Below, piece by piece: positions 2,861 to 10,975 of a stretch of DNA of 22,910 bases. How positions within the stretch are numbered: position 1 is the first letter of the stretch; each line of letters starts with the position of its first letter. The notes under the pieces are model-generated. The model worked only from the letters and a program-made list of their open reading frames with translations, was not told where the DNA came from and did not search any database. Source of the DNA: a virus (lineage: Duplodnaviria; Heunggongvirae; Uroviricota; Caudoviricetes). The stretch lies in the IMG/VR virus record IMGVR_UViG_2713896903_000002; one strand, 5' to 3'. The translations under genes were made by a program, and so were the position numbers.

Positions 2861-3039
2861 TGTTTGAGGAGGGGGAGAATGAATCAGACTGGTCAACCCA
2901 ACTATGCGCTTTTCGCCGGGAATGATAGCAATAGAGAAAGCCATAAGTGAATTAAAAATCTGTCAGCGCCAGTTCGGCCAAGGAAATGATTCTGGTGTCA
3001 GAGCTTTTATTCGCTAATTTTTTCACTGGGAGGCTATTT

Positions 3040-3297
3040 ATGCATTCACACCATCATCAAATATCTATGATCCCACTTACCATGAGTTCACCCATTAAAG
3101 GTTTTTCACTGTATGTAGAAAGCGAAGACATGGCTGTCGCTATAGCTGAGCTTGAAAATGCCTTATCACAGCTCAAGAACGGAGATAAGGCATTCAAAGA
3201 AAGTGGCACGTTGGTTGGTAACGTCAGAGCAAGTTATTGCTATCCTTACCGTCCTCATTGTGCCGCGAAAGGTCTTTATTGGGATGAAGGGGATTAA
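3040..3297 (+). CDS. hypothetical protein (85 aa), convergent partner of the 3294..3806 gene
   Basis: ATG 3040 with GGGAGG 6 nt upstream; AT-rich; its stop shares the TTAA tetranucleotide with the stop of the minus-strand gene. Confidence 0.4.
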   Translation: MHSHHHQISMIPLTMSSPIKGFSLYVESEDMAVAIAELENALSQLKNGDKAFKESGTLVGNVRASYCYPYRPHCAAKGLYWDEGD

Positions 3298-3806
3298 GCA
3301 AGGACTTGTTCACCGATAGTTACTGGTAATGGACAAATGTATTCCCAGACTGGATCAGGGTTAAAAGTTTTTCCTGACCAGTAAAGCTCCATTCTGTAGG
3401 TGAATTCCAATACCGATGTATCATTTCTTAATAATGACATATCTCCACGATGATAACTATCTGTTTGTATTATAAAAATTTTATCTGATGGTTTTCCGTC
3501 TGTAAGTCGAAAATGTTTAGCCTCCTCCAGGTTACCCCAGGCGAAGAGTGACGTATAGCGAGAAGGTTTTTGCGGGCAAACTCCTCTTCGGTAAAACTCA
3601 AGTCCCCAGTCGATGAGTTCGTTTTTATTATAAATTTTTGCCGCATTATTAATGAGATATCCTTCGCCTTGTGGAGCAAGCCCGCGCGGAAAAAGTTTGT
3701 CTACCAGAGATGACATTTCAACAGGAGTTATATCGGAGAATTGCTTTGGTGTAACGATATCGCCTGTTGAGTATATTCCTCGGCGATCAACCATAAATAG
3801 TTTCAT
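3294..3806 (-). CDS. hypothetical protein (170 aa) in AT-rich moron; function unknown
   Basis: Long minus-strand ORF in an otherwise + strand operon; GGAG 6 nt upstream of the ATG at 3804-3806 (alternative upstream ATG at 3816-3818 without a good RBS); visibly lower GC than flanks. Confidence 0.5.
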   Translation of the reverse strand: MKLFMVDRRGIYSTGDIVTPKQFSDITPVEMSSLVDKLFPRGLAPQGEGYLINNAAKIYNKNELIDWGLEFYRRGVCPQKPSRYTSLFAWGNLEEAKHFRLTDGKPSDKIFIIQTDSYHRGDMSLLRNDTSVLEFTYRMELYWSGKTFNPDPVWEYICPLPVTIGEQVLA

Positions 3807-4046
3807 TAATTTCTCCATTGATAGTTGTTACTTTTGGCGATGTAACGATATCAAACGAGAATTTATATCGCCAGATGCTTAATCTGATACTTCATCTGAC
3901 CCTAGTATGTGTCGGTTTTTTTATTTAAGGCCACTGACAGGTCCATTTAGTGCAACGCCTTTCCCCGTTTCCGCTCCTGGAATATTCGGGGATTTTTTAT
4001 TCCCTAAACTTACACCCGCGATATGTGCGAGGTGAGAGATGATGAA

Positions 4047-5401: not shown

Positions 5402-5686
5402 AGTTATCCCACCAGACAGCGAAACGATGAACGGGATTTTTTGCAGTGATTGAATGTAAATATGCGCATCAGCCGATGACGCCAAAAGTTATCGATGAAA
5501 TGCAACGCGAAGCAGCGCGTCTTGTACTGCGAGCGACAAATACAAAGGTTGCGTTCGTTCTGGACTGACATTACAGAAGCTCCTTTGATAAGGGGCTTCG
5601 ATAATGTCAAAGCTCGTTATCTGCACCCGCCGCGCACCCAGCGCACTGGCCGATAGCGGGCTTTTTTATTAATAAAGCGAGGCTGT

Positions 5687-6466
5687 ATGAGCGAGAAATT
5701 GAAGATCGTCTATCGCCCGTTACAAGAACTGTCTCCGTATGCACACAATGCCAGGACACACAGCCCTGAGCAGGTAACGCAACTGGTAGAAAGCATTAAG
5801 CAATTTGGCTGGACTAATCCGGTGCTGATTGATGAAAAGGGCGAAGTTATTGCGGGTCACGGTCGCGTTATGGCGGCTGAAGTGCTCAAAATGGATTTCG
5901 TTCCGGTCATCGTTCTGTCTGGTCTGACGGATGATCAGAAAAAGGCGTACCGTCTGGCAGATAATCGCCTGCCGATGAATGCTGGCTGGGATGAAGATCT
6001 GTTACGGATGGAGCTGTCGGACCTAATTAATGCTGATTTTGATGTCTCCCTGACAGGCTTCAGCCCGATAGAAATTGATGAACTGTTGACGGATATTTTG
6101 CCTGGTACAGGAAATGAGGAGGAGCCGTATACGACGAAAATTGATACGCCTGTTTATGAGCCGTCAGGCGATAAACCGGATATCTGTGAACTGTACGACG
6201 ATACGAAAACTCAGGAGCTGATCAGCCGGATACGTTCGGCGTCCCTTAATCCTGATATTGAGAAATTCCTCCTGTGCGCGGCAGAACGTCACACGGTGTT
6301 TAATTTCAGCAGAATCGCGGACTATTACGCTCACGCCCCCGCTGAAATTCAGAGCCTTTTTGAGGAATCGGCTCTGGTGATCATTGATTATCAGCAGGCA
6401 ATTGAAAATGGGTTTGTCAGGATGACGCAGCGCATGGTGGAGATCATGCATGGCGAGGAGGAGTAA
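5687..6466 (+). CDS. ParB N-terminal-domain (ParB/sulfiredoxin-like nuclease domain) protein
   Basis: N-terminal LSPYAHNARTHSPEQV..L..SI..FGWTNPVLID..GEVIAGHGRVMAA pattern typical of ParB-N/ParBc domains; translationally coupled to the next gene. Confidence 0.65.
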   Translation: MSEKLKIVYRPLQELSPYAHNARTHSPEQVTQLVESIKQFGWTNPVLIDEKGEVIAGHGRVMAAEVLKMDFVPVIVLSGLTDDQKKAYRLADNRLPMNAGWDEDLLRMELSDLINADFDVSLTGFSPIEIDELLTDILPGTGNEEEPYTTKIDTPVYEPSGDKPDICELYDDTKTQELISRIRSASLNPDIEKFLLCAAERHTVFNFSRIADYYAHAPAEIQSLFEESALVIIDYQQAIENGFVRMTQRMVEIMHGEEE

Positions 6467-6467
6467 T

Positions 6468-7400
6468 ATGCGTGATGATTTTTGCGCCTTTATTCTGACT
6501 CACGGGCGACCGGACAAAGTTCTGACTTACCGGACGTTGCGTCGTGCTGGCTATACCGGGAAAATTTTTATCGTTGTTGATGATGAAGATAAAACCCGGC
6601 ATCAGTACGTAGCAGAATTTGGTGAACAGGTGCTGGTGTTTTCCAAAGCCGATATCGCCAGTCGTTTTGACGAAGCCGACAACTTTGGCGATCGACGTTC
6701 AATCTTTTATGCCAGGAATGCCTGTTTGGGCCTGGCAAAAAAGGTTGGGTGTAAATACTACATCCAGCTTGATGACGACTATCACGAGTTTCAGTTTCGG
6801 GTGGATCGCAACTATGACCAGGCTTATTTTCCGATAAGGAAACTGGACTCGATCCTTTCTGAAATGCTGGCGTATTACGAATCAATTCCTGCGCTTTCCA
6901 TCGCTATGGCGCAGGGGGGGGATTTTCTTGGTGATAATGGTGGTCATGCTGCATGGGTGAAACGCAAAGCAATGAACAGCTTTATTTGTTCTGTTGACCG
7001 ACCATTCTCATTTATGGGGCGTATTAACGAGGATGTGAATACATACACGAATCTCGGTCGTCGTGGTGAATTGTTTTTGACGATTGGCGCTGTCCAGTTA
7101 GGGCAGAAGCAAACGCAGAAAAACAGCGGCGGAATGACCGAACTGTATCTGGATTCCGGCACCTACGTTAAAAGTTTTTACTCCGTCATGTATGCGCCGT
7201 CGTGCGTAAAAATCTCACTGATGGGCGCCAGCCATAAACGCATTCACCATCAGGTCACCTGGAACAACGCTGCAGTAAAAATCCTTCACGAAAAATACAG
7301 GAAGAAGACACCCTGCATATCAATGGGGGTGATAAATGATTCCGTATTCGAAAGTCGAGTCTCTGGCAGCGTGCCGGATGACTGCACAACAAATCGCTGA
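6468..7400 (+). CDS. hypothetical protein with DxD-type acidic motifs (possible GT-A-like nucleotide-sugar transferase fold); function unverified
   Basis: GAGGAGGAG RBS before ATG 6468; motifs IFIVVDDEDKT and YIQLDDDYHEF; no methyltransferase or PAPS-reductase motifs seen. Confidence 0.5.
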   Translation: MRDDFCAFILTHGRPDKVLTYRTLRRAGYTGKIFIVVDDEDKTRHQYVAEFGEQVLVFSKADIASRFDEADNFGDRRSIFYARNACLGLAKKVGCKYYIQLDDDYHEFQFRVDRNYDQAYFPIRKLDSILSEMLAYYESIPALSIAMAQGGDFLGDNGGHAAWVKRKAMNSFICSVDRPFSFMGRINEDVNTYTNLGRRGELFLTIGAVQLGQKQTQKNSGGMTELYLDSGTYVKSFYSVMYAPSCVKISLMGASHKRIHHQVTWNNAAVKILHEKYRKKTPCISMGVINDSVFESRVSGSVPDDCTTNR

Positions 7401-7587
7401 CGTTCTGGATGTTGATCTGAACAGACTGAAAGAAAATCGGGAAGCAATGACAAATTTTTATGCGTCCATCCGTAAGGGCAGAGCGAAAGGTGAAGCCGAG
7501 CTACGGGCGGCATTGTTTAAGCTTGCCAGAAAAGGGGATGCCTTTGCTCTGCGTGCATTACTCAGGGTGGATAAAAATCAGGACTAA
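7336..7587 (+). CDS. small helix-turn-helix-like protein (83 aa), overlaps the 3' end of the upstream gene
   Basis: GGGGGTGA RBS before ATG 7336; TAQQIADVLDVDLNRL HTH-like segment; 65-nt overlap with upstream ORF makes the start uncertain (alternative ATG 7378). Confidence 0.4.
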   Translation: MIPYSKVESLAACRMTAQQIADVLDVDLNRLKENREAMTNFYASIRKGRAKGEAELRAALFKLARKGDAFALRALLRVDKNQD

Positions 7588-7590
7588 CTG

Positions 7591-8685
7591 ATGAGCAGAC
7601 CGGACTGGGGGGCGTTGCAGCAGGAATATATTGCTGAATACACCCGCTCCGGTGTATCTCCGGTGGCGTGGTGTGAAGCAAAGGGACTGAATTACGCAAC
7701 AGCCCGTCGTTACATCAAGAAACCTCCGAAAAATGCGCAGACAGAAGTGCGCAAAACTGCGCAAAAAAGTGCGCGAAAAAAAACTGCGCAGACTGCGCAA
7801 AAGCAAAACGGAAAATCTCAGAAAAAAAAGACTGTATCCGATGCACTCCTGATTGAGGAGGACACGGAAGAAATTTCGTTCTGCCCCGATGAATTCGGTA
7901 TTTCTGACCAGCAGGCAAAATTCGCCATGTTGGTTGCTCAGGGGAAAAAGCCGACAGAGGCATACCGCCTGGCTGGTTACGAGGGGCAAGGTGCGACAGC
8001 AAACAGCAATGCCAGTCGTATGCTTAGAAATGCCAGGGTTTTTCGTGCCATCAGCTACTTTCGCAATCATTACCAGAAACGCTATACCGCAGACCTGGAT
8101 TTACTGGTGAGTCAGTTGATGGCCATCGTGCAGGCTGATCCCAATCAGCTTGCGCAATTTCGCCGTGTTAACTGTCGCTATTGCTGGGGGGAGAATCACC
8201 TCTATCAGTGGCGCGATATAGCAGAATTTGACAGGGCTGCCGCGCAGGCATCCAAAGATGGTAAACCAGAACCTGAATATGGTGGCCTCGGTTTCGTTGA
8301 TAGCGCCATACCAAATCCAGACTGTCCGAAATGCGGTGGAGAAGGTACAGGTCAGCTTTATATGGCTGATACCACTTTGCTTGATGGAAATGCGCGGCAA
8401 TTGTATGCAGGAGCAAAGCTCGGAAAATTCGGCGTTGAGATCCTGCTGGAGAATAAAGCTGCCGCCCGGCGTGAATTATTGCGTTTGCTTTCCGCTGGCG
8501 GGGCATTATGTGCAGATAAGCGACTACAGGAACTGGAAATTGAACGGCGCAGAATGGAAAACCAGAAACTGCGCAAAGAGATCGAAACGGTGGAGGGTAA
8601 TGAACATCCCCAGCCTGTGGCGATCAATATTAATGTGGTTGATGCCAGAGTGAGGAGTGATGAAGATGATCTCTCCGACGCTTAA
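7591..8685 (+). CDS. terminase small subunit (Terminase_2-type core with N-terminal HTH, K/A/Q-rich linker and C-terminal Cys4 zinc-ribbon-like segment)
   Basis: KFAMLVAQGKKPTEAYRLAGYEG...NASRMLRNARV matches the small-terminase signature as recalled; CxxC...CxxC (NCRYCWGEN / PDCPKCGGEG); sits directly upstream of TerL. Confidence 0.75.
   Translation: MSRPDWGALQQEYIAEYTRSGVSPVAWCEAKGLNYATARRYIKKPPKNAQTEVRKTAQKSARKKTAQTAQKQNGKSQKKKTVSDALLIEEDTEEISFCPDEFGISDQQAKFAMLVAQGKKPTEAYRLAGYEGQGATANSNASRMLRNARVFRAISYFRNHYQKRYTADLDLLVSQLMAIVQADPNQLAQFRRVNCRYCWGENHLYQWRDIAEFDRAAAQASKDGKPEPEYGGLGFVDSAIPNPDCPKCGGEGTGQLYMADTTLLDGNARQLYAGAKLGKFGVEILLENKAAARRELLRLLSAGGALCADKRLQELEIERRRMENQKLRKEIETVEGNEHPQPVAININVVDARVRSDEDDLSDA
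7734..7799. repeat. six copies of palindromic hexamer TGCGCA (one TGCGCG) spaced 9-15 nt apart inside terS; candidate pac / TerS-binding array
   Basis: Direct reading: TGCGCR at 7734, 7748, 7758, 7770, 7785, 7794, mostly followed by A-runs. Confidence 0.45.
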
Positions 8686-10975
8686 TGTGCCTCAGGCGCG
8701 ATTTCTTTCTATGCCTCATAAATTTAAAGCCTATGTTGCTGGTTTTGGTTGCCTGAGGGGAAGTACGCCTGTGGTTACAGAGAATGGGATTCTACCCATT
8801 CAGGAAATAACTCGACCAATGCGCGTTTTATCTTGGTCGGATGAGAATAATCGATTTGAGCTTTCGCTAAGTGGTGGTGCGTACCCAAAAGGTGTGGCGA
8901 ATCTATACCGAGTAGTGACGCAGCGAGGAGAATTTGTAGCAAGCGGACATCACCGCGTTTTTTGCGCTGACGGTAGCTATCGATCTGTGGATAGTCTGGA
9001 CGAATCGGTGAAGGTATTTGCATCTTCGCAAAACCTTCTTCTGACCAGTTTGGCCGCCGTCCCGAAATCGTTGCACGCAGGTGATCCACGTTTGAATCAA
9101 AAACTCGCAGATTACTTGGGGTGTTATGCAGATGAAGCCCGTCGATATGGTCAACAACTTCTGATGGCAGCAGATAACGCCCCAGCTTCTTTTCAGCGAT
9201 CAAACGATGTTCAAACATCATGCCTGTTCTGCGCATATATGGATGGTCAGCAGGCGCTGGAACAACGGCATATTCATCCAGATCAACAATTCGACCACCA
9301 CGAAAGCTGGGGTTCAACTCACCCTTTCTGGCGCCACGGGAGAGCCGGTTGGTGTTGTGAATTCGGAGAATATTTTGAACGTGCTTTTCTGTGCAACCAA
9401 CTTCCGCCGCGATCTCTGCCGACGTACAGTGACCATCAGCAAGAGCGAGGATTCTGTCCTTCGCACTTTCTCGAGGGGCAGGCTTCTGGCGTTGTTTCAG
9501 CGTTAACCCATAACGAGATATGCAACGATAAACATGACTACGGTCACAACCTGCCAGAGAAGCAACTTCTGAAACGGTACGTTCTGGATGTGCTAAATCA
9601 CAAATTAAATGGTCAAGAGGCGTCAAAACCAAACGCCTTAATCGAAACCTGCAACATATTGAGTGTAACACTGTTGCAGGAGGCCGAGCCATATTATGAC
9701 CTCCAGGTATTGGATAATAACTGCTACGTAACTGCTGATGGGACGATTCATCACAATAGCGGTAAAACATGGGTTGGGTGTGGTGGCATATGTAAGGGGA
9801 TTTGGGAGCATCCGGGTATCAATCAGGGATATTTCGCGCCTACATATCCACAAATTCGCGATATTTTTTATCCTACAGTTGAAGAAGTTGCTGCCGACTG
9901 GGGGCTAAATGTAAAAATTAACGAGGGAAATAAAGAAGTTCATTTTTATTACGGACGTCAGTATCGGGGAACCACTATCTGCAGATCGATGGAGAAGCCA
10001 CAAACGATCGTCGGTTTCAAAATTGGTAATGCGCTGGTGGATGAACTGGACATTTTGCCGAAGGAAAAAGCCAGAACAGCGTGGCGCAAGATAATTGCGC
10101 GTATGCGTTATAAGGTTGATGGACTTCGTAACGGTATTGACGTTACAACCACGCCGGAAGGATTCAAATTTGTCTACGAACAGTTTGTTAAAGCCGTACG
10201 TGAAAAAACAGAGCTGGCCTCACTGTATGGCCTGGTACAGGCATCTACTTTCGATAATGAAAAGAATTTGCCAGCAGATTACATTCCCTCGCTCCTTGAG
10301 TCATATCCTCCAGAGCTGATTAAAGCCTATCTTCGGGGACAGTTTACTAACCTGACAAGTGGTACTGTTTACCATCAGTTTGACCGAAAACTGAATAATT
10401 GCGAAGAAGAGGAACAGCCAGGTGAGCCGATATATATCGGGATGGATTTTAACGTCGGAAAAATGGCTGGAGTCGTTCATGTGTTACGTTTTGGGCTTCC
10501 ATGCGCAGTAACTGAAATCATTAACGCTTACGATACACCAGATATGATCCGTATTATTAAAGAGCGCTTCTGGTTATATGACGGGAATGATTATCGGAAA
10601 GTAAGGGAAATTTATATTTATCCTGATGCATCCGGGGATTCCAGAAAATCAAATAACGCAAGTGCGACGGATATTGCTCAGCTTAAACAGGCTGGTTTTA
10701 ACGTTGTTGTAAACAGTTCGAACCCGCCAGTAAAAGATCGCGTTAACTCAATGAATGCAATGTTCTGCAATGCCAATGGTGAGCGTCGCTATAAAGTTAA
10801 TGTGAAGCGTTGTCCGGTATATGCCGAATCTCTGGAGCAACAGGTCTGGGATGATAAGGGTGAGCCTGATAAAAAATCTGGTAACGATCACCCGAATGAT
10901 GCCGGAGGTTATTTTATTGTTAAGCAATTCCCTATTGTCAAACCGACCGGAAGAGTTACATCACTTCGGATTTAA
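8657..10975 (+). CDS. terminase large subunit, intein-containing precursor (probable start ATG 8666; spliced product about 433 aa)
   Basis: Walker A split as ...YVAGFG | intein | SGKTW...; Walker B-like ALVDELD; nuclease-domain motifs IYIGMDFN and DHPNDAGGY; continuous 772-codon frame. Confidence 0.85.
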   Translation: MMKMISPTLNVPQARFLSMPHKFKAYVAGFGCLRGSTPVVTENGILPIQEITRPMRVLSWSDENNRFELSLSGGAYPKGVANLYRVVTQRGEFVASGHHRVFCADGSYRSVDSLDESVKVFASSQNLLLTSLAAVPKSLHAGDPRLNQKLADYLGCYADEARRYGQQLLMAADNAPASFQRSNDVQTSCLFCAYMDGQQALEQRHIHPDQQFDHHESWGSTHPFWRHGRAGWCCEFGEYFERAFLCNQLPPRSLPTYSDHQQERGFCPSHFLEGQASGVVSALTHNEICNDKHDYGHNLPEKQLLKRYVLDVLNHKLNGQEASKPNALIETCNILSVTLLQEAEPYYDLQVLDNNCYVTADGTIHHNSGKTWVGCGGICKGIWEHPGINQGYFAPTYPQIRDIFYPTVEEVAADWGLNVKINEGNKEVHFYYGRQYRGTTICRSMEKPQTIVGFKIGNALVDELDILPKEKARTAWRKIIARMRYKVDGLRNGIDVTTTPEGFKFVYEQFVKAVREKTELASLYGLVQASTFDNEKNLPADYIPSLLESYPPELIKAYLRGQFTNLTSGTVYHQFDRKLNNCEEEEQPGEPIYIGMDFNVGKMAGVVHVLRFGLPCAVTEIINAYDTPDMIRIIKERFWLYDGNDYRKVREIYIYPDASGDSRKSNNASATDIAQLKQAGFNVVVNSSNPPVKDRVNSMNAMFCNANGERRYKVNVKRCPVYAESLEQQVWDDKGEPDKKSGNDHPNDAGGYFIVKQFPIVKPTGRVTSLRI
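8750..9757 (+). other. intein (336 codons) inserted in the TerL P-loop
   Basis: Block A CLRGSTPVVTENG starting with Cys at 8750; block B-like GEFVASGHHRVF; blocks F/G EPYYDLQVLDNNCYVTADGTIHHN ending in HN followed by Ser +1 (9758); extein halves rejoin to AGFGSGKT. Confidence 0.8.
8775..9692 (-). CDS. HNH endonuclease with N-terminal HTH-like modules, encoded antisense within the intein
   Basis: Minus-strand ORF shows HNH core FEHRLIAEKKLGRYLLPSEVVDHIDGLHLHNTPSNLRVFDSNVDHL (antisense of about 9075-9215); GGAGG + 7-nt spacer before ATG at 9690-9692; ORF is open from 9770 to 8775, so the true ends are uncertain. Confidence 0.55.
   Translation of the reverse strand: MARPPATVLHSICCRFRLRRLVLTPLDHLICDLAHPERTVSEVASLAGCDRSHVYRCISRYGLTLKQRQKPAPRESAKDRILALADGHCTSAEIAAEVGCTEKHVQNILRIHNTNRLSRGARKGELNPSFRGGRIVDLDEYAVVPAPADHPYMRRTGMMFEHRLIAEKKLGRYLLPSEVVDHIDGLHLHNTPSNLRVFDSNVDHLRATISGRRPNWSEEGFAKMQIPSPIRPDYPQIDSYRQRKKRGDVRLLQILLAASLLGIDSPHLLGTHHHLAKAQIDYSHPTKIKRALVELFPEWVESHSL

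Follow-up and report, generated by a model that had tools for sequence, protein, structure and literature searches.

A 22,910-nt stretch of Caudoviricetes DNA (IMG/VR virus record IMGVR_UViG_2713896903_000002; this whole stretch is called the window) carries at positions 5687 to 7400 two adjacent genes, one for a ParB-like protein and one for a glycosyltransferase of the TAGT (TET-associated glycosyltransferase) family. In this study, we found that the two genes are a self-contained module and that their pairing is not due to chance. The pairing is obligate, both genes are under purifying selection, the transferase retains its family profile, its GT-A fold and intact catalytic motifs, and no recognisable hydroxylating enzyme goes with the pair. 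We propose, with about even confidence, that the pair is a post-replicative phage DNA glycosylation system in which the ParB-like protein acts as adaptor. A role in DNA modification had been suggested in a preliminary description made from the sequence alone; we kept it as the best reading, with DNA as the inferred target.

Whether restriction, CRISPR and type IV defence succeed against a phage is decided by the sugar modifications of its DNA, which also provide tools for epigenomics. To our knowledge, all known routes to DNA sugars first install a hydroxyl handle on a pyrimidine. The module described here is without a hydroxyl-installing step, yet it is conserved, under selection and very common. 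If DNA is what it modifies, the DNA packaged by many ordinary lambdoid prophages would bear chemical marks that have so far escaped notice. If canonical bases are the target, this would be new chemistry, carried by a two-gene module in about one-fifth of complete Escherichia coli genomes and in phages of hosts from Bacteroidota to haloarchaea. If a protein is modified instead, the annotation of a large "DNA glycosyltransferase" family would be misleading.

The two genes are translationally coupled

The window is the late region of a lambdoid, Rac-like E. coli prophage. The pair and its parts lie on the + strand as follows.

5687..6466, + strand: gene for the ParB-like partner (proposed adaptor), 259 aa, ATG at 5687 and TAA at 6464-6466; from the list of open reading frames (ORFs), PHROG 620 and the family alignment
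5687..6094, + strand: ParB/Srx-type N-domain, residues 1 to ~136; from the alignment to Spo0J and from Foldseek
6128..6166, + strand: conserved peptide YTTKIDTPVYEPS, residues 148-160, in a linker predicted to be disordered and acidic
6182..6451, + strand: C-terminal helical domain, residues ~166-255; sub-threshold match to PF23887 only
6455..6470, + strand: coupling junction with GAGGAGGAG at 6455-6463, TAA at 6464-6466, one base, and ATG at 6468-6470; read from the sequence
6468..7400, + strand: TAGT-family GT-A glycosyltransferase, 310 aa, ATG at 6468 and stop at 7398-7400

The ParB-like ORF ends at the ribosome-binding site GAGGAGGAG, and the ATG of the TAGT gene stands one base past its TAA, which bears out the translational coupling claimed in the preliminary description. 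In relatives, the partner and TAGT genes overlap by a few nucleotides instead of being separated by a one-base gap. An in-frame ATG at 6450 would give a TAGT protein of 316 aa. However, 6468 was taken as the start because all homologues begin with MRDDF, which corresponds to this position. There is no sigma-70-like promoter inside the pair region, and the pair was therefore read as part of the late transcript. A search for a promoter or a terminator belonging to the module itself found none.

The second gene encodes a glycosyltransferase of the TAGT family

The 310-aa protein matched Pfam PF20691 (TAGT) with 122.5 bits against a cut-off of 27.5 (E 2.8e-35, residues 8-222), and it matched PHROG 842, "beta-glucosyl-HMC-alpha-glucosyltransferase", at 1.9e-99. 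Its close relatives bear the NCBI name "GREB1-related protein". The protein has the GT-A fold, and the sugar transferase of GT-A type suspected from its acidic motifs is confirmed. The preliminary description had also suggested that it could be of an uncharacterised type, a view that has to be given up since the protein is a clear member of PF20691. The profile match that might have led to an unrelated family leads instead to a functionally related one.

Both acidic motifs that had been pointed out are present, VVDDEDKT at residues 35-42 and LDDDYHEF at residues 101-108, and their key residues D38, D41, D102-D104 and Y105 are invariant or nearly so among homologues. R14, D102-D103-D104-Y105 and N187-E188-D189...Y193 are invariant or at least 90% conserved down to 39% identity, and Q149-G150-G151-D152 is likewise invariant or nearly so down to this level. 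These conserved residues correspond to the R...DDD...EDY/F motifs defined for phage DNA GT-A enzymes and JGT (bioRxiv 10.1101/2023.12.21.572611). The core of the enzyme spans residues 1-282. The 28-residue tail is of low confidence, is absent in the aligned homologues from outside E. coli, and partly overlaps the next ORF. The enzyme is basic, with an isoelectric point (pI) of ~9.

Members of the TAGT clade also occur as fusions with class I SAM methyltransferases, with a sulfotransferase or with a second TAGT domain (P0252, P0253, P0281, P0267, P0268, P0274, P0299, P0313). Another fusion in the same set has an N-terminal domain of ~180 aa with a P-loop motif, which is kinase-like by sequence reading only. 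A neighbouring GT1 gene was also seen beside TAGT, and in one locus (L176, 80-1042) the gene immediately before the ParB-like one encodes a radical SAM enzyme. These fusions and neighbours match known DNA-glycan clusters and indicate that the sugar can be elaborated further. Fusions of ParB with TAGT were considered as Rosetta-stone evidence and set aside, the only examples being two doubtful single-contig cases (P0080 and P0231).

The partner has a ParB/Srx-type N-domain and is not a partition protein

The 259-aa partner matched PHROG 620 (4.8e-87) and TIGR00180 (1.6e-8), and it scored 25.1 bits with Pfam ParB_N, just under the gathering threshold of 26.3. In phmmer, it matched Spo0J and ParB structures, and its GHGR (residues 57-60) fell on the GERR of box II. 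A Foldseek search with the predicted model related its N-domain to Noc, ParB CTPase domains and PadC (E 3e-6). The first protein had been described as ParB/sulfiredoxin-like, and these matches agree with that. The arginine motif of ParB-N, whose absence was to count against the assignment, is present as a reduced box II: G57, G59 and R60 are invariant in the family, and only the second arginine of GERR is retained. D92-N93 occupies the position of box III. By alignment and predicted model, the N-domain is a ParB/Srx (ParB-CTPase) fold, for which nucleotide binding is predicted.

Residues 1-140 are of the same ParB subtype as the N-terminus of phage ParB-DNA methyltransferase fusions, as judged from phrog_498 (4e-50, positions 31-171 of 633) and PADLOC MTase_II (1e-37, positions 13-151 of 436). 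About 500 phage records annotated as DNA methylases share this N-domain subtype, fused to N6/N4 methyltransferases. The Pfam scan found no methyltransferase domain in the partner, and the PADLOC defence library gave the N-terminal match to MTase_II only.

A canonical partition ParB was considered and rejected, as there was no HTH_ParB match, no parA in the window or in relatives, and no parS-like repeats. The N-terminus of the partner, MSEKLKIVYRP, is without the LG(K/R)GL motif for ParA binding. The protein is very acidic (pI 4.5, net charge ~ -24), the charge being spread across all three parts. Because the partner has no helix-turn-helix (HTH), no ParA-binding motif and no parA neighbour, and because of its net charge, we conclude that it is not a partition protein.

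The linker and C-terminal domain are the constant companion of TAGT

The acidic linker (residues 137-161) has a predicted local distance difference test (pLDDT) value below 50 and is predicted to be disordered. It holds a peptide with the consensus YTxKIxxPxYEP, in which Y148 and Y157 are invariant in ParB-fused and in stand-alone forms of the partner. The C-terminal domain was modelled with moderate confidence only; it is covered by no Pfam family, its similarity to PF23887 being below threshold, and the Foldseek matches of the whole partner model derive from the N-domain. In an hmmsearch, the linker and C-terminal domain were found upstream of TAGT in all 186 of the 186 fetched loci of the TAGT clade. 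These results show that the constant companion of this clade is the linker with the C-terminal domain, and not the ParB domain. In contrast, the distant T4-like TAGT of Aeromonas phage 65 is without such a partner.

The stand-alone form is seen in 195-kb Vibrio phages, where a 139-aa protein consisting of linker and C-terminal domain only lies directly upstream of TAGT, amid primase and helicase genes, and is 54% identical to residues 141-244 of the window partner. The same stand-alone partner stands directly upstream of TAGT in marine contigs. A search with the C-terminal part gave ~60 clusters of stand-alone partners of ~130 aa each. Stand-alone forms are located among primase, helicase and polymerase genes.

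The stand-alone partners start with MKQxx[LM]F. Among 65 stand-alone proteins, 30 have the strict pattern Q-x-x-hydrophobic-F in their first 14 residues, whereas composition-preserving shuffles gave 0.25 on average and never more than 2. Bacterial proteins bind the beta clamp through a QL[SD]LF motif, which occupies an N-terminal position in Hda. By sequence, the QxxLF of the stand-alone partners resembles this motif and may be a putative clamp-binding site; the window protein is not its carrier.

One such locus, on a 107-kb marine contig (L183, 8001-15000), has the stand-alone partner, a methyltransferase and TAGT beside an HNH gene and a C5 DNA methylase. A neighbouring protein there has a dGTP diphosphohydrolase domain (PF18909). 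This suggests that the L183 phage carries several DNA modifications.

The pair is widespread, linked and under purifying selection

DNA like that of window positions 5600-7600 was found in 1149 of 5426 complete E. coli genomes, with at least 80% of the query covered in 866 of them. The order in a typical Rac prophage is lysis genes, trkG, ParB ("ynaK"), TAGT and terminase. Both families are large, with at least 8000 clusters each at 90% identity, and the TAGT family has 1328 representatives at 50% identity.

A full-length partner ORF accompanied TAGT in all 173 of the first loci fetched, a set that includes 48 diverse ones with a TAGT identity of 55-83%. The partner lay directly upstream of TAGT with a small overlap in every one of these loci except L168, where it was ~3 kb upstream. 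When the neighbours were clustered, the partner and TAGT were the only universal genes, and no third family recurred. In ParB-fused loci, terminases usually follow downstream, either immediately or within ~3 kb, and they are of four unrelated kinds: Terminase_2 with Terminase_6N, Terminase_4 with TerL_ATPase, Terminase_3, and lambda Nu1 with GpA.

The pair was also found far from E. coli. In the haloarchaeal virus HHTV-2, the TAGT is 43% identical and the large terminase lies ~3 kb further on. Lactobacillus phages c5 and phi jlb1, Nocardia phage NTR1 and a Porphyromonas phage (26% identity) carry the pair as well; in the complete 31.8-kb genome of phage c5, the two genes are ORF1 and ORF2 and adjoin cos. 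TAGT identity is 40-48% across hosts with unrelated envelopes.

The ratio of nonsynonymous to synonymous substitutions (dN/dS) relative to the typical E. coli allele was 0.13 for the partner and 0.055 for TAGT, which indicates purifying selection. Of 61 distinct E. coli-type sequences, 60 had both genes intact, and the last was essentially full-length as well. Phage vB_EcoS-683R6 (ON470595) is another carrier of an intact pair.

Two individual loci deserve mention. In K-12, ynaK (L187, 3878-4141) is an 87-codon remnant of the ParB-like gene that matches positions 2-90 of the ParB-family profile, about the first 90 residues; the TAGT and terminase genes are deleted there. K-12 ydaY was considered as a remnant of TAGT and rejected, which leaves ynaK alone. 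In JNEC-KY178 (L001, 20088-20876), RefSeq records a truncated pseudogene, yet an intact ParB-like ORF of 263 codons is present.

Proposed mechanism

In the mechanism that we propose, which would operate late in infection, the 310-aa TAGT would be the catalyst, a GT-A enzyme that transfers a sugar taken from a nucleotide-sugar donor. As its dedicated adaptor or activator would serve the 259-aa protein, with the linker and C-terminal domain binding or positioning the basic transferase. The ParB/Srx N-domain may couple the enzyme to double-stranded DNA in a nucleotide-dependent manner, like the ParB activators of phage thymine dioxygenases. A ParB without a DNA-binding domain has been shown experimentally to be required by its cognate phage thymine dioxygenase on double-stranded DNA (PMC13229309). 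In relatives without the ParB domain, the putative beta-clamp-binding motif would take over the DNA-targeting role; T4 alpha-glucosyltransferase binds and co-purifies with the gp45 sliding clamp (PMC13216743). The ParB/Srx N-module would thus serve in packaging-linked versions and the clamp-binding motif in replication-linked ones. Judged by sequence, the N-terminal DNA-targeting module appears to be interchangeable. A constant linker and C-terminal domain with a swappable ParB or clamp-like module would give a concrete model of how an enzyme is delivered to DNA.

Because of the position of the pair in the late operon, beside the terminase genes, progeny DNA would be marked before packaging and might be shielded from nucleases in the next host. 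According to PMC8256090, Aravind and co-workers had put forward the same idea of marking before packaging for the ParB of TET clusters. Since the pair occurs in E. coli, Gram-positive, actinobacterial, Bacteroidota and haloarchaeal hosts, the acceptor should be common to all of them, and DNA fits this.

The missing hydroxylating step and alternative explanations

Several points weigh against a DNA glycosylation system. The partner has no recognisable DNA-binding domain, and all three of its parts are acidic. A Pfam scan of the window found no TET/JBP dioxygenase, no thymidylate-synthase-like hydroxymethylase and no other hydroxylating candidate, and scans of the early and lysis ORFs of the window and of the recurrent neighbours gave no dioxygenase or hydroxymethylase. 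Two Rac-type prophages, inspected from the integrase at least as far as the terminase genes, had no hydroxylating enzyme and hold ordinary lambdoid functions only. The complete 31.8-kb genome of phage c5 had none either; its unannotated proteins are all of 208 aa or less, and the four largest have no significant Pfam match. None was found by Pfam among 100 neighbour-family representatives (best 25 of 69 families), where a weak single match may have escaped notice. The characterised members of the superfamily all depend on a hydroxyl group as acceptor, which canonical DNA does not provide. The TAGT-family enzyme of T2/T6 puts a second glucose on glucosyl-5-hydroxymethylcytosine (glucosyl-hmC; PMC13216743, PMC13390438), phage TETs make the 5-hydroxymethylcytosine (5hmC) acceptor, and the acceptor of JGT is 5-hydroxymethyluracil (5hmU) (PMC8256090; bioRxiv 10.1101/2023.12.21.572611). 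GREB1, of the same superfamily, glycosylates protein at Ser/Thr (PMC7968844). About 65% of glycosyltransferase (GT) contigs are without 5mYOX or ThyS, and the NEB group judged such contigs "less likely" to be DNA pathways (bioRxiv 10.1101/2023.12.21.572611). A modified base has been reported for no phage that carries the pair. "Solitary" TAGT in 288 of 753 phage genomes has been reported and not explained (PMC13216743), and none of the papers that we searched names both TAGT and ParB.

The acceptor may be one of the canonical bases or a base that some unrecognised enzyme has prepared, or it may lie outside DNA altogether. We consider it rather unlikely that a canonical base of double-stranded DNA receives the sugar from the pair directly, without prior hydroxylation or hydroxymethylation; by analogy with the arginine-GlcNAc transferases of GT-A fold, an exocyclic amine would be a possible site. 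The strongest alternative, which we regard as doubtful, is that the transferase glycosylates protein. A specific version takes as substrate the disordered, hydroxyl-rich YTxKIxxPxYEP of its own partner, in a glycogenin-like or mucin-like manner, giving an acidic glycoprotein for anti-defence or packaging. In a broader version, a phage or host protein is the target and the ParB-like subunit is a nucleotide-gated regulator. However, the conserved short peptide is equally explained as a docking motif, and apart from the partner there is no candidate target protein common to the diverse carriers. The ParB N-domain subtype is otherwise joined to DNA methyltransferases, and the stand-alone partners sit in replication modules and have a clamp-binding-like motif, both of which argue for DNA. 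It is also conceivable that DNA is glycosylated on a pre-formed hydroxylated base made by a phage or host enzyme that profiles do not see. We think this distinctly improbable, although a 2026 PNAS study found thousands of 5mYOX-like sequences without TET/JBP annotation (PMC13229309), many neighbours of the pair are unannotated, and a radical SAM enzyme lies directly upstream in one locus. Only the partner and TAGT are common to all loci, phage c5 has no unannotated protein above 208 aa, and the Rac-type prophages (n=2) are ordinary lambdoid ones. A shared host enzyme is unlikely because the hosts span archaea to Bacteroidota.

In lysogenic conversion or envelope modification, a cell-surface polymer would be decorated as by prophage TarP or Gtr, with the ParB-like gene either encoding a nuclease or standing there as a neighbour without any relation to the enzyme. 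This is very unlikely given that the pair lies in a late operon and is not a lysogeny-expressed moron, that it occurs in phage c5 (no annotated integrase) and in an archaeal virus, and that the enzyme is 40-48% identical across hosts whose envelopes are unrelated; strict pairing and translational coupling contradict an unrelated neighbour. A decaying relic of a ParB-dioxygenase-glycosyltransferase cluster that lost its dioxygenase and its function might be suspected from the co-occurrence of ParB, 5mYOX and GT in other phages (PMC13229309) and from known remnants, namely K-12 ynaK and fragments in Lactobacillus phages LL-Ku and Ld25A. Loss of function is hardly to be expected of genes with dN/dS values of 0.055 and 0.13, both intact in 60 of 61 sequences, whose catalytic motifs are invariant to ~40% identity and which form thousands of sequence clusters.

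Comparison with known systems

The T2/T6 TAGT (PF20691) belongs to the same family as the window enzyme and shares its GT-A fold and its GR, DD(D), NED and TQ..GG..RxHH motifs. The enzyme of the T4-like Aeromonas phage 65 is 23% identical to the window TAGT, whose first acidic motif, VVDDEDK, is not kept in the T4-like branch. The substrate of the T-even enzyme is glucose on 5hmC that was made before replication, and the enzyme works without a ParB or C-terminal-domain partner. The window, in contrast, has no hmC pathway and no alpha- or beta-glucosyltransferase, and its enzyme has an obligate partner gene. Kinetoplastid JGT and GREB1 are placed in the same GT-A superfamily by NCBI naming and by the literature (bioRxiv 10.1101/2023.12.21.572611; PMC7968844); JGT needs 5hmU from JBP, and GREB1 modifies protein.

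By architecture, the partner can be likened to ParB176 of the 5mYOX176/ParB176 system, which has a ParB-like nucleotide-binding N-domain and a C-terminal domain, no DNA-binding domain, and a position beside a post-replicative DNA-modifying enzyme (PMC13229309). The window differs in having no dioxygenase, the enzyme paired with the ParB-like protein being the glycosyltransferase itself. In the survey of 5mYOX pathways, glycosyltransferases (31%) and terminases (19%) were common neighbours (PMC13229309). The fusions of ParB-N with DNA N6- or N4-methyltransferases share the ParB subtype of their N-terminal 140 residues with the window partner, and in Streptococcus prophage records the genes for these fusions group around a similar coordinate of the genome (~12-15 kb). 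Instead of a fused methyltransferase, the window has a separate glycosyltransferase, reached via a linker and C-terminal domain. With T4 alpha-glucosyltransferase and gp45, the shared idea is a DNA glycosyltransferase tethered to a DNA-tracking clamp (PMC13216743). The T4 enzyme is of GT-B fold and binds the clamp itself, whereas for the window a separate adaptor is proposed, and the clamp motif is predicted from sequence in the stand-alone relatives only.

ParB genes beside phage TET/GT clusters and terminases had been noted earlier (PMC8256090, PMC13229309). The transferase family and the proximity of ParB to phage DNA-modification genes and terminases are already known. What appears to be new here is a pairing with the glycosyltransferase in which there is no hydroxylating partner, together with a dedicated C-terminal domain and an apparently interchangeable N-terminal module.

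Genomic context and the terminase region

The genes around the pair follow the order DUF1367, YbcO and a Q-like antiterminator, then holin, lysozyme and spanin, then the pair. As had been described, the pair is located ahead of the packaging genes: an 83-aa ORF comes next, followed by the small and large terminase subunits and by the head and tail genes. The downstream features are as follows.

7336..7587, + strand: small ORF of 83 aa between TAGT and the small terminase subunit; PHROG 309 at 8e-22
7591..8685, + strand: terminase small subunit, 364 aa (context); Pfam Terminase_2, PHROG 51
8657..10975, + strand: terminase large subunit with intein (context); Terminase_6N, Terminase_6C, comparison to an intein-less homologue

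Typical Rac-type prophages have trkG, for a potassium transporter, between the lysis genes and the ParB-like gene. At this place the window has a non-coding gap of ~280 nt (5404-5686). Two ORFs of the window, 2986-3297 (+) and 3294-3818 (-), had no family match in the Pfam scan.

The 83-aa ORF (7336-7587) overlaps the last 65 nt of the TAGT gene and matches the middle of the small-terminase family PHROG 309. A homologous ORF of ~85 aa follows TAGT in 13 of 48 diverse loci. This ORF probably belongs to the packaging genes and not to the module.

Inside the small terminase gene, short direct repeats AAAA(A/C)TGCGCAGAC and CTGCGCAAA were seen at window positions 7729-7793 and 8547-8577. They may be a candidate pac-site element of a headful-type terminase.

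The intein of the large terminase (window 8750-9757, +) has 336 residues, starts with CLRGS and ends with HHN followed by S. Its insertion point is exactly in the Walker A loop, AGFG|SGKT, and the sequences on either side of it are 98% identical to those of a homologue that has no intein. Read on the sense strand, the central part of the intein does not look native. An ORF of 331 aa (8775-9770, -) with HTH and HNH_3 endonuclease domains runs on the other strand, and the homing endonuclease therefore appears to be encoded antisense to the intein.

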